A stretch of DNA of 64,000 bases from a virus. The DNA is taken from the IMG/VR virus record IMGVR_UViG_3300009157_000001, positions 62,635 to 126,634 of that record; one strand, 5' to 3'. Under the pieces are notes generated by a model. That model was not told where the DNA came from, ran no database searches, and worked only from the letters and a program-made list of their open reading frames with translations. This document shows positions 11,039 to 63,512 of the stretch, piece by piece (the stretch's first letter is position 1; every line of letters starts with the position of its first letter). Both the position numbers and the translations under genes were made by a program.

Positions 11039-11154
11039 CGGGGAAGATGGGAATCGAACCCACGTCCACTTCCTGGTCTAGTCTAGACTGCCAGGTTTAG
11101 CATTTGAATAGTTCCGGATATCTCCTTTATCTATTCCCTCTCTGCAACTTCCCC
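11039..11154 (-). ncRNA. Non-canonical tRNA-like RNA B (116 nt)
   Basis: Acceptor GGGGAAG/CTTCCCC+G, T arm GTGGG-TTCGATT-CCCAT, CCTGG/CCAGG stem with a 14-nt loop, enlarged D-arm region. Confidence 0.75.
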
Positions 11155-11155
11155 T

Positions 11156-11351
11156 TGGTGAACATGGTGGGTACTGCCCCCACTGAGTTGATGAATCCTA
11201 ATACCGGACTCTTGATTGAAGAGACTTATACACCCACACCATTATGTGGAGGGTATTCCCACTCTCTCCCTTTCCCGGCAGCACTCTTAACTGCCATGGA
11301 TTTATCCCTGGTTGGTCCCCAGGGCCAGACTTCTATGCCTGGACCATGTTC
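11156..11351 (-). ncRNA. Non-canonical tRNA-like RNA A (196 nt, encoded CCA)
   Basis: Acceptor GAACATG/CATGTTC+ACCA, T arm GTGGG-GGCAGTA-CCCAC, two 6-bp 5' hairpins, about 120-nt structured insert. Confidence 0.75.
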
Positions 11352-19582: not shown

Positions 19583-20155
19583 TTAAATGAGATTTAGTTT
19601 ATCTATAGCACTCTTCATATCATTATCTGTGAGTCCTGTCTCACTACTGGTTTTTATAAACCAAGGAGCCTGCTCTAAGAGCATATCTGCATCATCATCC
19701 AAAATAATATAAACAAAGTCCTTTCCTAGTTTATTTGAGAACATCTTCTTGAATGATTGATCTTCTTTAAATTCCTTATAAAGATGATCTAATTCCGGAT
19801 TAGCATGCCAAGGGTAGACCAAATGTCTATCTATCCAGTGTTTTATCTCAACTCCCCGGGGAATAGGTAAAGAGCTTCCTTTCTTAGTCTCTGTATACCC
19901 ATGGACTGTGATTCCTATAATCTCATCCCAAAGATCCTGAGGGAAACCGTGTTTGTCAAACTGCTCTTTCATAAGAGTGGAGTCACTGCACCGCCAGGAG
20001 GATGATACCACAATCTTGGCACCGGTCTGCTGGATTATATATTTTAACCTTTCCATACACAAGACATCAAACATATTGTAGGGAGGAATATTGACTACTC
20101 CATCTATGTCCAAGAATATGATCTTTGCAGGGAGTCCTCCGGTTATTGTTTTCAT
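19583..20155 (-). CDS. HAD-superfamily protein (Swiss-Army-Knife RNA-repair-like HAD domain)
   Basis: IIFLDIDGV, IVVSSSWR, RGVEIKHW and YIILDDD motifs. Confidence 0.85.
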   Translation of the reverse strand: MKTITGGLPAKIIFLDIDGVVNIPPYNMFDVLCMERLKYIIQQTGAKIVVSSSWRCSDSTLMKEQFDKHGFPQDLWDEIIGITVHGYTETKKGSSLPIPRGVEIKHWIDRHLVYPWHANPELDHLYKEFKEDQSFKKMFSNKLGKDFVYIILDDDADMLLEQAPWFIKTSSETGLTDNDMKSAIDKLNLI

Positions 20156-21716: not shown

Positions 21717-22148
21717 TTACAGAAGATTCAAAGCATGTTCTATTGCAATATTGAGTATTGCATATCGGTCACCGGCTCCCAGATCATCTGCAGGCCCAGG
21801 TTTTGGTTTTCCTACTTGCCAGATGAAAGCACGATAACAAGGAGTATTTACACTAGTATTTTCTCCCCATCCATCTATTATAAGTTCAATATAGATCCCT
21901 TTGGTTTCTAACCAGTCAAGAACCTGTTGGTAAAAGGGAGCAGAAATTACAGTTCTATGTGTATCTCTTATCCAGTTTGTACTTGAATTAGTATAAGTCC
22001 TCCATTCACTATCAGTATCCTCATATTCAACACATTCCTGTTTATTATTAAGAAGATGGCCATTTACATACTCTGCTATACAAGGTTTATCAAAACCCTT
22101 TTTCTTAACTAAAAGAGCCAGCCTGTGTGGAATAAATAAATGTTTCAT
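21717..22148 (-). CDS. Hypothetical phage protein (LVKKKGFD..C; SAPFYQQVLDWL)
   Basis: 143-aa ORF; pattern recurrent in Bacteroidota phages. Confidence 0.75.
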   Translation of the reverse strand: MKHLFIPHRLALLVKKKGFDKPCIAEYVNGHLLNNKQECVEYEDTDSEWRTYTNSSTNWIRDTHRTVISAPFYQQVLDWLETKGIYIELIIDGWGENTSVNTPCYRAFIWQVGKPKPGPADDLGAGDRYAILNIAIEHALNLL

Positions 22149-22160
22149 GTTCTTAGTTTT

Positions 22161-22790
22161 TTAGAATAGTAAAGGTAATAATCTGTCAATTCCTAAAGCA
22201 AATCCAATCCCTCCATCATATTGTCCTCCACCACATACTTGTTTGGAGGACCCTAGAGAATCACAGATGATCTCAAAGCCCTTACCTTCCTTGTAATAGT
22301 CCAAGCCTCGGGTTACCTCATAGTTTATCTTGAATAGATCTAACTGGAAGCTTGTATCAAGTAGTCTCATTGCAGCTACATGTATTGCATCATACAAATC
22401 TGTAGGGTTAAGTATCTCAACTCCTAATTGTGTAAATTGTCTATATCTCCCAGCCTGGGGTTTTTCACCTCTAAAACACTCCTGGACATAAAACAACTTC
22501 ACATTCTTCTGGTCCTTAAAGTAAGTACCTGCTAATTTCTGTATTACTGCAGTATATTCAGGTGCTAGGCACAAGCCCCGGTCTCCCCGGTCTTTAAAGT
22601 TGTACATAAGGTTATTGTTCTCTTCTCCTACTTTACCAGAAAAGGTTCCTTGGTGTTGTATAATAGGAACTGAGATCTCAGTAAATCCATCTCCGATTAA
22701 GAGAGCAACCATTCTTTGGATCATCTCTCTCTTTTTATTACCTAGAAGGATCCTGGTGCCTTTGTAGCATGTCTCTTTGATTTCTTTCAT
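22161..22790 (-). CDS. Histidyl-tRNA-synthetase-like catalytic core only (209 aa)
   Basis: KGTR, LAPEYT, motif 2 FRGEKPQAGRYRQFTQLGVE, RGLDYY, GGGQYD, motif 3 GFALGIDRL; no anticodon-binding domain. Confidence 0.85.
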   Translation of the reverse strand: MKEIKETCYKGTRILLGNKKREMIQRMVALLIGDGFTEISVPIIQHQGTFSGKVGEENNNLMYNFKDRGDRGLCLAPEYTAVIQKLAGTYFKDQKNVKLFYVQECFRGEKPQAGRYRQFTQLGVEILNPTDLYDAIHVAAMRLLDTSFQLDLFKINYEVTRGLDYYKEGKGFEIICDSLGSSKQVCGGGQYDGGIGFALGIDRLLPLLF

Positions 22791-22812
22791 ACTTAATAAT
22801 TTAAGTTAAAAA

Positions 22813-23417
22813 CTCTGATTAGGTTATCTACCCAGGCCAAACCTGGAAAACTCATATAAGTGTGAGTACAACTATCCATGTTACCACAGATATTTCTGTT
22901 TATCACCAATAGATTCTTTATCTCAGAGCAAGCTCTTATAATAATCTTCTGTGCTTCTGCTGCAGTAGTTTAGAATGGGAACCCGGTATCTCAACCGGTA
23001 TTTATCATTCCACCACTTCTGGTTGCCTATGGTTAACCCTAAGACTTAAGGCTTTAACGGGTGTTTTAAGTCTTTTTGCATTGCTGCCCTACAGCAGAAG
23101 ACACAGAAGATTTTGTACATTCCCAACAATCAAGGTTGTTTACACCCAGCTCTCCAGCTAGAGAGCACTACTGTGCTAATAAATAGTTGAGTCTTTTAGA
23201 TTGTTGGGTATCTACATAAAAAGCTGCCGGTATTCCTTCAAGCATCAGGGTTCTTTTGAAACCACTGACATCGGGCCTGATCCACTGCCGGCTACATACC
23301 CAGTGGAGGAAATAAAAGATGACTGAGGGCATATGCCTGCTTTTTGCCCAGGTAATGACGCTTTTTCAATAGAAAAGACCATATCGTCTTTTGGTCTTGC
23401 AGTCCCTTTTCAGTCAT
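22813..23417 (-). ncRNA. Array of about five closed structured RNA domains
   Basis: Closing stems at 22813-22928, 22943-23112 (20 bp), 23122-23208 (10 bp), 23226-23307 and 23319-23417 (8 bp). Confidence 0.65.
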
Positions 23418-23422
23418 ATATC

Positions 23423-23695
23423 TTAATGATTTGTTGCCCAGATGTGTGGACAAAGACCATGCCCTGGATATTCTCTCCAGGAAATTCTCTTTATAATCCA
23501 GAACCCTTCTGTCCATTCTTTTCCAGAACTTCCGGTCTTATCTCCCGGTTGAAAGGATTTAGTAATATACTTGGTTATATCACAAGCCCATACCTCATCT
23601 TCCTTACTTGGAATCTGTGGAAAAGGCCAGTCTACCTCAAAGGTAGCAACATCCGAGGAAGAGTCCAGTTTTATAACTTTGAATATTATCTTCAT
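23423..23695 (-). CDS. Hypothetical protein
   Basis: 90-aa ORF. Confidence 0.65.
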   Translation of the reverse strand: MKIIFKVIKLDSSSDVATFEVDWPFPQIPSKEDEVWACDITKYITKSFQPGDKTGSSGKEWTEGFWIIKRISWREYPGHGLCPHIWATNH

Positions 23696-61600: not shown

Positions 61601-63512
61601 TTTCTTCTATGATTGGCTTTATGATCAACCTGATGGTTTTGAGTTCAGTTATCAGGAGAGAAAAATGCTTCCTTTCCCAAGATACTGGATGGATACTACT
61701 CAGTTTGATTTTAATGACTTTACCTCTGCTATACTAAGTAATCTGCTTACTCCGGCAAACTGGGACAACTCCCTGCCGAATAATAGGTTTAGACTTGATA
61801 GAACCGGACCTTGTTTTGCTATAAGGTTTTCCCAGAAAGAGGCTTATATGTATCTTTTTTCTTCAGGAGTAAGAGACTTCTATGTAGAATCTGAGATCAA
61901 CACTGATCTAAGAGATTGGGGAGAAGACATAGAGCAAAGGCATTATGATCCTTATAGATTCACTGATACTCTTGCTTTATTTAATGCTAAGCCTGCTACT
62001 ATAAAATCAGGGAACTATTTCAAGTATGATATATCCTTAAGTGTATCCAGGTTATTTAACAATTTCATATCCTGGGCAAATATTCAGGATAGGGATTATG
62101 ATCCATTGGTTGCTCAGACTTGTTTCAGTTATTATCCAGATAGGGTTATATATTCTCTTCCTCAACAGACTGAACTCAGAAAAGACAATTGGAGAATGTT
62201 CCTTGCTAATAATTATAAGGACTTTAAAAGTAGAGTTACTGCTATAAAACCTATAAATAAAAGTGGAGCTCTTATTCTGTTTCAGAATGAAGCCCCTGTT
62301 CAGTTTCAAGGATTAGATCAACTTCAGACAGATCTGGGTACCAAACTTACCATAGGAGATGGAGGACTCTTCAGTCAACCTCTCCAGAATATTCTTAATG
62401 CAGACCGGCCTTATGAGTATGGTTCTTGTCAGAACAGACTCAGTGTAATTAATACCCCAATGGGGGCATTCTGGATGAGTCAGAATCAAGGTAAGATATT
62501 CCAGATTGGTCAAGGAATTCAGGAGATCTCTGCAGAAGGCCTTAAGTGGTGGTTTGCTGAGTATCTTCCCTATAAAATTCTTGAGAGTTTCCCAAATTTT
62601 GAATTAAAAGATAACACTATAATTGGAGTAGGTTGTCAGGCTATTTATGACAATGAGGATGGTATTGTATATTTTACTAAAAGAGACTTCAAGCTCATAC
62701 CAAATCTTCCTGTAGTAGTTACTTATGTAAGTAAGGATGACTTTTTGGTTAATGGATCCCTTCCTATAAAATTAGGAGATCCTCTATATTTCGAGGATGC
62801 TAGTTGGACTGTAAGTTATGATCCTAAGATGAAGATATGGCTTTCTTATCATGACTGGCATCCAAATTTACTTATGCCATCTAAGACTCACTTCCTAAGT
62901 GTATTGAGTTCAGGTATATGGAGACATAACAATGTTTGCAACAGTTATTGTAATTTCTATGGAATAGATTATCCTTTTGAGGTAGAGTTCTATGCTCCTA
63001 CAGAACCCACAGTATTTACTACAAGGAGCATAGAATATGTCTTGGAATGTTATAGATACTCTCAGAACTGTTTTGATGGGTTTCATGTTCTTGACTTCAA
63101 CTTTGACGAGGCTATTGTCTTTAATACAGAGCAAGTATCTGGGATTCTGAGACTTAACTTAAGTCCTAAGAATAATCCAGCTCAGACAGTAACTTTTCCT
63201 AATATACAGGCAGGTTTCATTAATATCCTATATTCTAAAGAAGAGAATAAGTATAGATTTAATCAGTTCTGGGATATCACAGATGATCGGGGGGAGTTTA
63301 ATCTGGCAGCACAGAGAGCAATCTGGAACACTTCTTCTAATGGTTACGTAAAAACACTGAATCCCAATAACCTGAACTATAATAAACCTCTTCTACAAAG
63401 GAAGAAATTCCGGCACTACTTAGTAGCATTTTTTCTTAGGAGAAGAGTGAGCGGATCAACAAAAATGTTGTTTAAGGTTAGCACAGTAAAACAATTATTA
63501 TCACCAAGATGA
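58653..63512 (+). CDS. Tail stabilization/muzzle protein
   Basis: 1619 aa; F.KG..D..ARNA, YWDDGLNP.R, YLRDEVYSF, GDTYVTR, WTVSYD..W.SYHDW.P; synteny. Confidence 0.8.
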   Translation: MADKIQNTSNSVTRRFTKGLFRDIEDSLLTDGVWTHARNAINNSKTGDLGSLGNEPSNTLCASSPIPLVIIGVIHLDGTRWAIFSTNDTTSEIGLFDEGACTYVQVADDSIGGCLNFKKSNPIIGVSRENEDCTWQIYWDDGLNPSRTMNFDKPPFVETCVTVNNCITCTPNPPEVDCDKLRLARLTKTPCLRVEKGPAGGTLRNGSYYAVIAYTIKKIRVTDYSVPSNIQSLFDHDNVAGSLDIHIDDVDKENYDEFELVIVATVNQQTVAKRLGVYNVRQSVISLDQIKEDLPSIPIELIPLRTPLYDKSDAMFEVGEYLVRTGPATKLDFNYQPLANQIVTKWASVQYPSDYYAKGGSQTSYLRDEVYSFFIRWLYDTGDKSPSYHIPGRAPNAIDIQTVAGADALIEINEGITPFRWRVYNTATVTSLVSSTLPDGGVQVAEGLMGYWESTELYPDDKIQIWGNLCGQPIRHHRFPDNGLHPNTHHINPGATSIRVMGVKFENVQIPLDNLGNPILNIVGYEILRGSREGNKSVIAKGIINNMGQYAIEGGITPRQGYYPNYPYNDLRPDPFLSTTETQGGCNPGTENFTPQASFSRDRFTFHSPDTQFKNPFLSAKEIKVYGELNGVVQGQFTPPDKHPKHKLITNLAFLAAFIGGIGVAMLASNGRRTIRRSGPRPLNEGGSGAFAGPAGIGSWAAPGVPFTGISELGISGVAFNGAYHGVLGGLDAAWYKSGIGVLGAAAGTGPDLAYYTPLQAAGIPGSGIPGMLGYITDIDQQETGLTATPTILRVFNALPTFSYYLGEGTDSILRIIRNLVPYRQYALQYTSQCLYDSFQIPQANNQRRTINDAIYITPSIQDFGGSDRINNLYRSKSVALQTSITFADPLTQDITRQRVGDNPGGVTHVSPLLPFATISSCHYSALKQRIRNQYGQLDGIQQVPVSVCPTTVSPLISPVSATGVLFNGDTYVTRYTEKNSFFFFYDWLYDQPDGFEFSYQERKMLPFPRYWMDTTQFDFNDFTSAILSNLLTPANWDNSLPNNRFRLDRTGPCFAIRFSQKEAYMYLFSSGVRDFYVESEINTDLRDWGEDIEQRHYDPYRFTDTLALFNAKPATIKSGNYFKYDISLSVSRLFNNFISWANIQDRDYDPLVAQTCFSYYPDRVIYSLPQQTELRKDNWRMFLANNYKDFKSRVTAIKPINKSGALILFQNEAPVQFQGLDQLQTDLGTKLTIGDGGLFSQPLQNILNADRPYEYGSCQNRLSVINTPMGAFWMSQNQGKIFQIGQGIQEISAEGLKWWFAEYLPYKILESFPNFELKDNTIIGVGCQAIYDNEDGIVYFTKRDFKLIPNLPVVVTYVSKDDFLVNGSLPIKLGDPLYFEDASWTVSYDPKMKIWLSYHDWHPNLLMPSKTHFLSVLSSGIWRHNNVCNSYCNFYGIDYPFEVEFYAPTEPTVFTTRSIEYVLECYRYSQNCFDGFHVLDFNFDEAIVFNTEQVSGILRLNLSPKNNPAQTVTFPNIQAGFINILYSKEENKYRFNQFWDITDDRGEFNLAAQRAIWNTSSNGYVKTLNPNNLNYNKPLLQRKKFRHYLVAFFLRRRVSGSTKMLFKVSTVKQLLSPR

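Follow-up and report, generated by a model that had tools for sequence, protein, structure and literature searches.

EpmA is a stand-alone class II core without an anticodon-binding domain, and pyrrolysyl-tRNA synthetases (PylRS) that lack the N-terminal domain ignore the anticodon. Amino acid:carrier-protein (aa:CP) ligases are listed in a 2022 review, in which HisZ is the only listed paralog derived from histidyl-tRNA synthetase (HisRS) (PMC9437257). Designed HisRS cores, so-called urzymes, activate histidine without the insertion domain (PMC3060492) and are said to aminoacylate tRNA-His (PMC11602164). Phage synthetases in general are treated in a paper on huge phages whose main text does not contain the word "histidyl" (PMC7162821). 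In full-text literature searches, with Supplementary Tables 6-7 of PMC7162821 (huge-phage synthetases, which may include members) lying outside them, we found no paper on a HisRS of about 200 amino acids (aa) in which insertion domain and anticodon-binding domain are both missing. Here, we describe such a protein, encoded in a 64,000-nucleotide stretch of viral DNA (the window; positions 62,635 to 126,634 of IMG/VR record IMGVR_UViG_3300009157_000001). The record comprises 126,634 bp with direct terminal repeats and is rated complete, and the window forms its second half. The 209-aa product, hereafter mini-HisRS, is a variant of a known enzyme kind. The initial annotation of a minimal, stand-alone HisRS catalytic core was confirmed: the active site is intact and both extra domains are absent.

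The open reading frame (ORF) at 22161-22790 on the minus strand starts with ATG and was confirmed exactly as first given. Its product matched the Pfam family tRNA-synt_His (PF13393) at E 2.3e-18 and 66.9 bits, above the cut-off of 25. The NCBIfam equivalog model hisS (TIGR00442) gave 143.5 bits, which lies under its curated cut-off of 286.75, and the hisZ model (TIGR00443) gave a lower score still, 90.3 bits against a cut-off of 271.65. No family in PHROGs or PADLOC matched the protein. A phmmer comparison with E. coli HisRS (1htt/1kmm) aligned two stretches, residues 31-127 with E. coli (Ec) 33-133 and residues 152-205 with Ec 250-313. The insertion domain, which in E. coli occupies about 116 residues (~134-249) between motif 2 and the HisA loop, is thus reduced to only 24 residues, in line with the very short segment between motif 2 and RGLDYY noticed initially. 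The early stop after motif 3 was likewise borne out, as the chain ends six residues past the motif 3 arginine (R203, Ec R311) with no anticodon-binding domain, and the stretch between GGGQYDG and GFALG is another 11 residues shorter than in E. coli HisRS. The features of the gene are as follows:

22161-22790, minus strand: coding sequence of mini-HisRS, catalytic core only (ORF list, family matches, alignment to E. coli HisRS, structure model, Foldseek)
22653-22682, minus strand: motif 1 region, residues 37-46 with Pro42, centre of the predicted dimer interface (conservation, dimer prediction)
22548-22568, minus strand: LAPEYTA loop, residues 75-81; E78 and T80 correspond to the histidine-binding E83 and T85 of E. 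coli (alignment)
22410-22478, minus strand: motif 2 including its loop, residues 105-127, CFRGEKPQAGRYRQFTQLGVEIL (alignment)
22338-22409, minus strand: 24-residue linker, residues 128-151, replacing the insertion domain (the two-stretch alignment leaves Ec 134-249 unmatched)
22293-22310, minus strand: HisA loop RGLDYY, residues 161-166; R161 corresponds to Ec R259, Y165/Y166 to Y263/Y264 (alignment, DNA)
22215-22232, minus strand: HisB loop GGGQYD, residues 187-192; Y191 corresponds to Ec Y288 (alignment)
22176-22211, minus strand: motif 3 (GFALGIDRL), residues 194-205, GIGFALGIDRLL; G196 corresponds to Ec G304, R203 to Ec R311 (alignment)

Conservation was counted over 120 close homologs, 48 mini representatives and 72 full-length HisRS representatives. 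All three class II motifs, including the catalytic arginines, align to the E. coli motif residues through Pro42, R107 and R203, and the presence of motifs 2 and 3 and of the histidine-binding loops, as originally read, holds on alignment to E. coli HisRS. Pro42 is present in all 120 close homologs, in 45/48 of the mini representatives and in 72/72 full-length enzymes; for R203 the counts were 120/120, 46/48 and 72/72. Motif 2 reads FRGEKPQAGRYRQF, and its residues R107, E109, Q112, R115, R117, Q121 and E125 (Ec R113, E115, Q118, R121, R123, Q127 and E131) were all kept in 120/120 close homologs, as were E78, T80 and the HisA loop RGLDYY, which we verified by hand against the DNA. Taken together, the positions equivalent to Ec E83, T85, R113, R121, R123, Q127, E131, R259, Y263, Y264, Y288, G304 and R311 were retained in 120/120 close homologs and in 41-46 of the 48 mini representatives, which is about as in the 72 full-length enzymes; Q112 was kept in 39/48 mini representatives. 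The motif 2 loop EKPQAGRYRQF is of the type that reads C73 and G-1, with Q112 and R117 present in 120/120 close homologs. In the HisB loop, G188, G189 and Y191 are conserved, and across both histidine loops and the histidine-binding residues position 190 is the sole difference from E. coli. The initial annotation had singled out GGGQYD against a canonical GGGRYD as an oddity; this difference is not meaningful, because position 190 varies in mini and full-length HisRS alike and is R in only 32/72 full-length representatives.

An AlphaFold2 model built from the family alignment was confident and compact (predicted local distance difference test, pLDDT, 93.4; predicted template modelling score, pTM, 0.90), with the linker 128-151 forming one short helix at residues 136-144. 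The best Foldseek matches were chains of E. coli HisRS (1kmm; TMq 0.85, root mean square deviation 2.5 A), and catalytic-domain-only PylRS chains of 264-278 residues also matched, at TMq 0.70-0.72. The protein was also predicted to form a homodimer through the N-terminal strand and motif 1, including residues 12-18 and 37-46. The score of 0.87 (best of three controls, 0.01) is reached by 20 of 30 solved one-chain pairs and 1 of 23 solved single chains, with at least 96% contact agreement between runs and a partner pLDDT of at least 86; it may reflect likeness to known structures, since HisRS dimers have already been solved. A dimer would matter because it is the partner subunit that contributes the Gly-Gly dipeptide forming the G-1 pocket in the T. 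thermophilus complex (PMC4357726).

These stand-alone cores form a large family of proteins of about 200-225 aa. A word-indexed search for proteins of similar length gave 2362 matches at E <= 0.001, the best 120 of which are 203-255 aa long and, the window's own protein aside, 68-74% identical. In an exhaustive HMMER search of 50%-identity representatives, 5668 matches were obtained; the 41 at E <= 1e-30 were all short forms or pieces, including the intein-bearing P0121, and the earliest full-length HisRS ranked at E 6.6e-28. Sorting the best 150 representatives yielded 50 of mini type, 73 of full-length type and 27 fragments or unclear cases. The family is under purifying selection: among the 25 closest phage pairs, the 15 with a finite dS gave dN/dS (nonsynonymous over synonymous substitution rates) values of 0.04-0.26, dS being saturated in the other ten. 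The intein in P0121, a metagenomic homolog of 564 aa (PF14890, 50.9 bits; LAGLIDADG_3, 26 bits), is inserted exactly between Y and T of the histidine-binding loop LAPEYTA; inteins favour conserved functional sites such as this one.

Three public phage records contain a short homolog in one piece, namely those of Sinorhizobium phage Phosso (469 kb), whose copy is annotated as histidyl-tRNA synthetase, and of two uncultured phages of 642 and 635 kb. IMG/VR contributed 17 more loci on contigs of 11 to 676 kb, and species-representative genomes 18 mini-type loci, in Pseudomonas species, Thalassospira, Azospirillum, Chromobacterium, Pararhizobium and several metagenome-assembled genomes. The member of the Pseudomonas syringae group has 192 aa and is found on 107 contigs, including 6-Mb chromosomes, where NCBI names it either "ATP phosphoribosyltransferase regulatory subunit" or "tRNA synthetase class II". 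Two relatives of intermediate length, P0171 (346 aa) and P0233 (313 aa), matched the hisS model in two stretches and may lack only the insertion domain.

Among the phage loci, the gene lies inside or adjoins a tRNA array in eight distinct cases. We searched for tRNA-His with a covariance model over 18 gene-carrying records and checked fetched matches with ARAGORN. As this census covered the best-scoring matches only, at 30 loci, a result of "not found" is weak for two records, G008 (2/25 matches covered) and G005 (2/7). A tRNA-His was present in 8/18 phage records with the gene, and in six of these eight it lay upstream of it, with distances of 13, 18 and 276 nt and of 2.1, 2.6 and 5.5 kb. A G at position -1 is encoded in each of eight gene-linked copies, most of which have C73 and one A73. 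Three further tRNA-His copies showed G-1 and C73 in two cases, and the third (L175) could not be parsed. The complete-rated records of the window's own phage and of G010, G012 and G013 have no tRNA-His, so a tRNA-His encoded by the phage is no prerequisite for the enzyme.

The most telling case is a matched enzyme and tRNA pair in Pararhizobium sp. BT-229. Its host HisRS has an atypical motif 2 loop, FRNEKPGPGRFRQF, in which KPGPGRFRQF contrasts with the EKPQAGRYRQF of the 209-aa protein, and its chromosomal tRNA-His has no G-1 and carries U72 and A73. Such an atypical alpha-proteobacterial histidine identity (A73, U72, anticodon) has been described (PMC9976931). The tRNA array beside the mini gene, in contrast, contains a tRNA-His with G-1 and C73, and the mini enzyme has the canonical loop YERPQMGRYREF. 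For an element that brings a canonical tRNA-His into an atypical host, a canonical HisRS would be required, and no candidate other than the mini gene adjoins the array. The same pairing of enzyme and tRNA-His is found in Sinorhizobium phage Phosso.

At two loci, tRNA-His(gtg) genes with a long extra arm (90 nt at L013:9820-9909 and 86 nt at L017:7690-7775) adjoin normal-length tRNA-His genes just upstream of mini-HisRS; unusual tRNA-His species in phages have been reported (PMC5389517). A 197-kb phage contig with mini-HisRS (L181, record G011) encodes two tRNAs with a CUA anticodon, called "tRNA-Pyl(cta)" by ARAGORN, which could possibly be amber suppressors and point to TAG recoding. In Pararhizobium sp. 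BT-229 (L039, genome G001), where 103 tRNA matches were counted, a single 1.6-Mb contig bears several dense tRNA arrays; one of these consists mostly of Pro, His, Leu and Tyr tRNAs and includes a "tRNA-His(atg)".

Considering architecture, conserved residues, family size, purifying selection and the association with tRNA-His in other elements, we infer, with a probability of roughly 60%, that mini-HisRS is a functional minimal enzyme, namely a dimeric, anticodon-blind HisRS that charges G-1:C73 acceptor ends. Histidine would be activated with ATP by the full HisRS active site to give histidyl-adenylate and would then be transferred to the 3' end of tRNA-His. Recognition would run via the acceptor end alone, where the motif 2 loop, together with a pocket spanning the dimer, would read the extra G-1 paired to C73, and would involve neither reading of the anticodon nor clamping of the stem by an insertion domain. 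The substrate in the window's own phage would be the tRNA-His of the host, because this phage has none of its own, and the likely benefit would be additional, phage-controlled charging capacity during infection.

Charging from the acceptor end alone is plausible because E. coli HisRS efficiently charges mini- and microhelices with G-1:C73 (PMC9976931), because the insertion-domain single mutants R197A and K209A keep half or more of the activity (PMC4357726), and because the designed HisRS cores activate histidine and are said to acylate tRNA-His. The motif II loop covaries with C73 (PMC9976931), and T. thermophilus Glu114, the equivalent of the motif 2 residue E109 (Ec E115), is essential for aminoacylation (PMC4357726). 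The suggestion of the initial annotation that the enzyme may charge acceptor-stem-only substrates is thus favoured by the conserved motif 2 loop, the co-located tRNA-His genes and the matched pair.

A number of observations weigh against this reading. Both tRNA-gripping domains of every characterised HisRS are absent here, and the anticodon-binding domain HGTP_anticodon (PF03129) had no match at E <= 1 in the complete phage genome (the control matched in 14/14 genomes). Designed HisRS fragments perform much worse (PMC3060492). The residue aligned to T. thermophilus Glu64, reported as essential, is Leu in our protein, in a column that is E in only 33/72 full-length HisRS. The dipeptide of the G-1 pocket (T. 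thermophilus G72-G73) keeps its first Gly (G69, 118/120 close homologs), and N or D takes the place of the second in the close clade. The complete genome of the window's own phage has no tRNA-His, nor do at least three other records rated complete (G010, G012 and G013); in these, the host would already supply what the enzyme does. Counted by nearest neighbour alone, the link to tRNA-His is marginal: the nearest upstream tRNA is His in 3/8 tRNA-array loci, where His accounts for 8/68 tRNAs, and a binomial calculated by hand gives ~0.06 for loci that are not independent. Finally, P0125, P0132 and P0149, which form a nested subclade beside an intact copy (L019), and P0155 have lost catalytic residues of motif 2, HisA or motif 3 while their ORFs remain full-length, so that these four may be pseudo-enzymes, and 2/20 phage copies are truncated (L021, L022). 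The gene is therefore dispensable or repurposed in some lineages.

Carried further, the favoured mechanism would make mini-HisRS the smallest natural aminoacyl-tRNA synthetase, free-standing and anticodon-blind, whose sole requirement in an RNA is a G-1:C73 acceptor end. In mobile elements it would form one half of a portable identity cassette, together with a G-1:C73 tRNA-His, that works even in hosts with differing histidine rules such as Rhizobiales. In phages without tRNA-His, the window's own among them, it would keep the tRNA-His of the host charged irrespective of the condition of its anticodon loop, for instance after nuclease attack, and it might also histidylate other RNAs ending in G-1:C73. 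We regard this extended proposal as tentative and lean against it in its full form.

Histidine could also be activated and then passed to a protein, a carrier or a small molecule, as in EpmA and the aa:CP ligases, or the product could be a nucleotide, for example a dinucleoside polyphosphate. Such a function would fit the intact adenylation site, the loss of the tRNA-gripping domains, the absence of tRNA-His from the phage and the non-tRNA roles that stand-alone class II cores often have (table of PMC9437257). We nevertheless consider it rather unlikely, as no partner or acceptor gene is conserved beside mini-HisRS. An all-against-all BLAST of flanking ORFs at 18 phage loci revealed no protein neighbour common to at least four distinct loci, and the flanks of 17 bacterial loci contained only common chromosomal genes (LysR, MFS, GNAT, DUF3144). 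Furthermore, conservation of the acceptor-reading motif 2 loop matches that in full-length HisRS, and the gene sits within tRNA arrays, beside tRNA-His where such exist. The EpmA-like protein modification or nucleotide synthesis proposed at first found no supporting evidence.

A second alternative holds that the protein binds tRNA-His or a host factor without turnover. It could serve as decoy or shield where a host defence senses or cuts tRNA, or act together with RNA repair enzymes. About 2 kb from mini-HisRS, a gene at 19583-20155 (minus strand, 190 aa) encodes a HAD_SAK_2 domain, a "Swiss Army Knife" RNA repair phosphatase (E 1e-23). In two huge phages (LR756502 and LR745206) the mini gene is flanked by two RNA ligase genes (PF09414), and members without catalytic residues persist as ORFs. 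Such repair genes are, on the other hand, not conserved neighbours across the phage loci, neither PF09414 nor RtcB had a match in the genome of the window's phage (a search with the RNA ligase family PF09511 was uninformative, its control matching in no genome), and no PADLOC family matches the protein. The catalytic residues are invariant in the close clade of the query (120/120), which a pure binder would not need. A role in binding alone therefore appears improbable.

The naming of bacterial members in RefSeq raises a third alternative, a HisZ-like regulatory subunit of ATP phosphoribosyltransferase. The label "ATP phosphoribosyltransferase regulatory subunit" is attached to members from Pseudomonas, Thalassospira, Azospirillum and Flavobacterium, and the hisZ model does match the window's protein. 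Its 90.3 bits remain far under the cut-off, and the hisS model scores higher. In addition, the catalytic residues are retained, whereas HisZ is described as having no adenylation activity (PMC9437257), and HisG (PF01634) had no match in the complete phage genome (control matched in 14/14 genomes). P0271-P0297 (Pseudomonas syringae group, Thalassospira, Azospirillum, Flavobacterium) bear the HisZ-type name despite intact catalytic residues; the name on bacterial mini-HisRS is probably an automatic mislabel.

Phylogenetic placement speaks to the same question. Trees were computed as "quick" IQ-TREE searches on 218-220 columns, unrooted, with the Shimodaira-Hasegawa-like approximate likelihood ratio test (SH-aLRT) as the only support measure. 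A 99% branch in a tree of 116 rows set off the full-length enzymes, with a single short protein (P0207) nested within that side. For a second tree, P0207 (244 aa, keeping the E. coli-type segment before motif 3) and P0172 (a very long branch) were removed, and one HisZ from Pararhizobium and the Pararhizobium host HisRS were added. Here, a branch with SH-aLRT 99 divided the 68 mini rows from the 47 full-length rows, so that the mini forms did not lie within cellular HisRS. The sole HisZ, a long branch flagged by the tool, fell on the full-length side across this branch and joined the host HisRS. We take these trees as good evidence that the mini architecture arose once and is not kin to HisZ, while the tree holds no evidence on the age of the family. 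A grouping with HisZ, a possibility raised in the initial annotation, is thus contradicted by both model scores and tree, and we consider a HisZ-like function very improbable.

That the gene is a decaying, functionless remnant of a captured host hisS, another outcome entertained initially, is scarcely credible: its half-normal length and the 2/20 truncated phage copies would fit, yet the same architecture recurs in the 2362 near-length proteins and in about 50 clusters at 50% identity, forms a single clade, is conserved at dN/dS 0.04-0.26 and is predicted to adopt a confident, compact fold.

Besides a terminase and a major head protein, the phage itself encodes a portal with distant relatives in Leptolyngbya phage Lbo-JY46 (32.5%), csAssE-Sib, Cellulophaga phi17:2 and crAss-like gut phages, and the phage is a distant relative of the crAss-like phages. 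The mini-HisRS gene belongs to a long series of genes on the minus strand; no Pfam family was assigned to the gene 12 nt downstream (21717-22148) or to most of the other neighbours. A split gene was ruled out, as there was neither a PF03129 match nor a second HisRS piece anywhere in the genome.

Directly upstream of mini-HisRS lies an ORF-poor region of 630 nt, and other phages have tRNA genes at this position. Its part at 22791-23170 (minus strand) folds at -119.9 kcal/mol compared with -91.0 +/- 5.9 kcal/mol for shuffled sequences (z -4.9; 0/100 shuffles as good). Rfam searches of 22700-23500 at E <= 10 returned chance-level matches only, and the structured region has no relatives in the other loci compared or elsewhere in the genome. 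We found no sign of a histidine attenuator, in that the five small minus-strand ORFs in 22791-23440 contain 0-2 His each and no His run, and no minus-strand terminator-like site between 22791 and 23420.

The phage genome contains only two tRNA-like genes, neither of them a tRNA-His and both outside the window (contig coordinates of the own genome, G000). The one at C1:56217-56304 has a 19-nt insertion in the anticodon loop and is called Gln(ctg), 87 nt, by ARAGORN, and the other, at C1:31112-31181, has a defective anticodon stem and no ARAGORN call. Across the whole window, ARAGORN and Rfam at gathering scores detected no tRNA, Rfam finding nothing at all. Two back-to-back tRNA-like RNAs at 11039-11351 (minus strand), called by neither, gave weak Rfam matches far under the gathering scores to transfer-messenger RNA (tmRNA; E 0.0011) and alphaproteobacterial two-piece tmRNA (E 0.046); this is a candidate for a permuted or two-piece tmRNA-like gene that is worth testing. 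Our reading of 11039-11351 agrees with the initial annotation that the tRNA-like RNAs of the window are without G-1:C73, and also that no link between them and mini-HisRS is shown.

If mini-HisRS charges tRNA-His, its 209 residues would make it, to our knowledge, the smallest natural tRNA synthetase. Histidine identity could then be enforced from the acceptor end alone, and a compact, anticodon-independent enzyme would become available for genetic-code engineering. It would further account for a common, unnamed accessory gene of large and crAss-related phages and for how tRNA arrays bring a foreign tRNA identity into a host. Tractable test systems are offered by the chromosomal copies of the Pseudomonas syringae group and by the isolate phage Phosso, and the HisZ naming of bacterial members in RefSeq is unsupported by the evidence presented here.

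Compared with known systems, mini-HisRS is closest to canonical HisS (class IIa; E. coli 1KMM/1HTT, T. thermophilus 4RDX), with which it shares the catalytic fold (TMq 0.85), motifs 1-3, the HisA and HisB loops, the residues contacting histidine, ATP and the acceptor, and the motif 1 region used in its predicted dimer. It differs from canonical HisS in lacking the insertion and anticodon-binding domains and 11 residues before motif 3, in scoring under the hisS cut-off, in forming a clade separate from all 47 full-length rows, and in being an extra gene on phages, tRNA arrays and some bacterial chromosomes. HisZ (TIGR00443) is likewise derived from HisRS, has no anticodon-binding domain and shares its database name with bacterial mini members; mini-HisRS, unlike HisZ, keeps the catalytic residues, has no insertion domain and no HisG in the phage, and the tree does not join the two. 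EpmA/PoxA and the aa:CP ligases resemble it as stand-alone class II cores without an anticodon-binding domain, but stem from LysRS and SerRS/GlyRS-like enzymes and have dedicated acceptor proteins, whereas no acceptor partner gene accompanies the mini family. PylRS without the N-terminal domain (M. alvus PylRS, D. hafniense PylSc) is also a small class II enzyme with little beyond the catalytic domain, yet it belongs to another family with another amino acid and tRNA and is about 55-70 residues longer. HisRS has also been cut to its core in the designed urzymes (119-145 aa) and in the N-terminal catalytic fragment of the E. coli enzyme; those are laboratory constructs without the HisA loop, some also without motif 3, whereas mini-HisRS is natural, is under selection and keeps HisA, HisB and motif 3.

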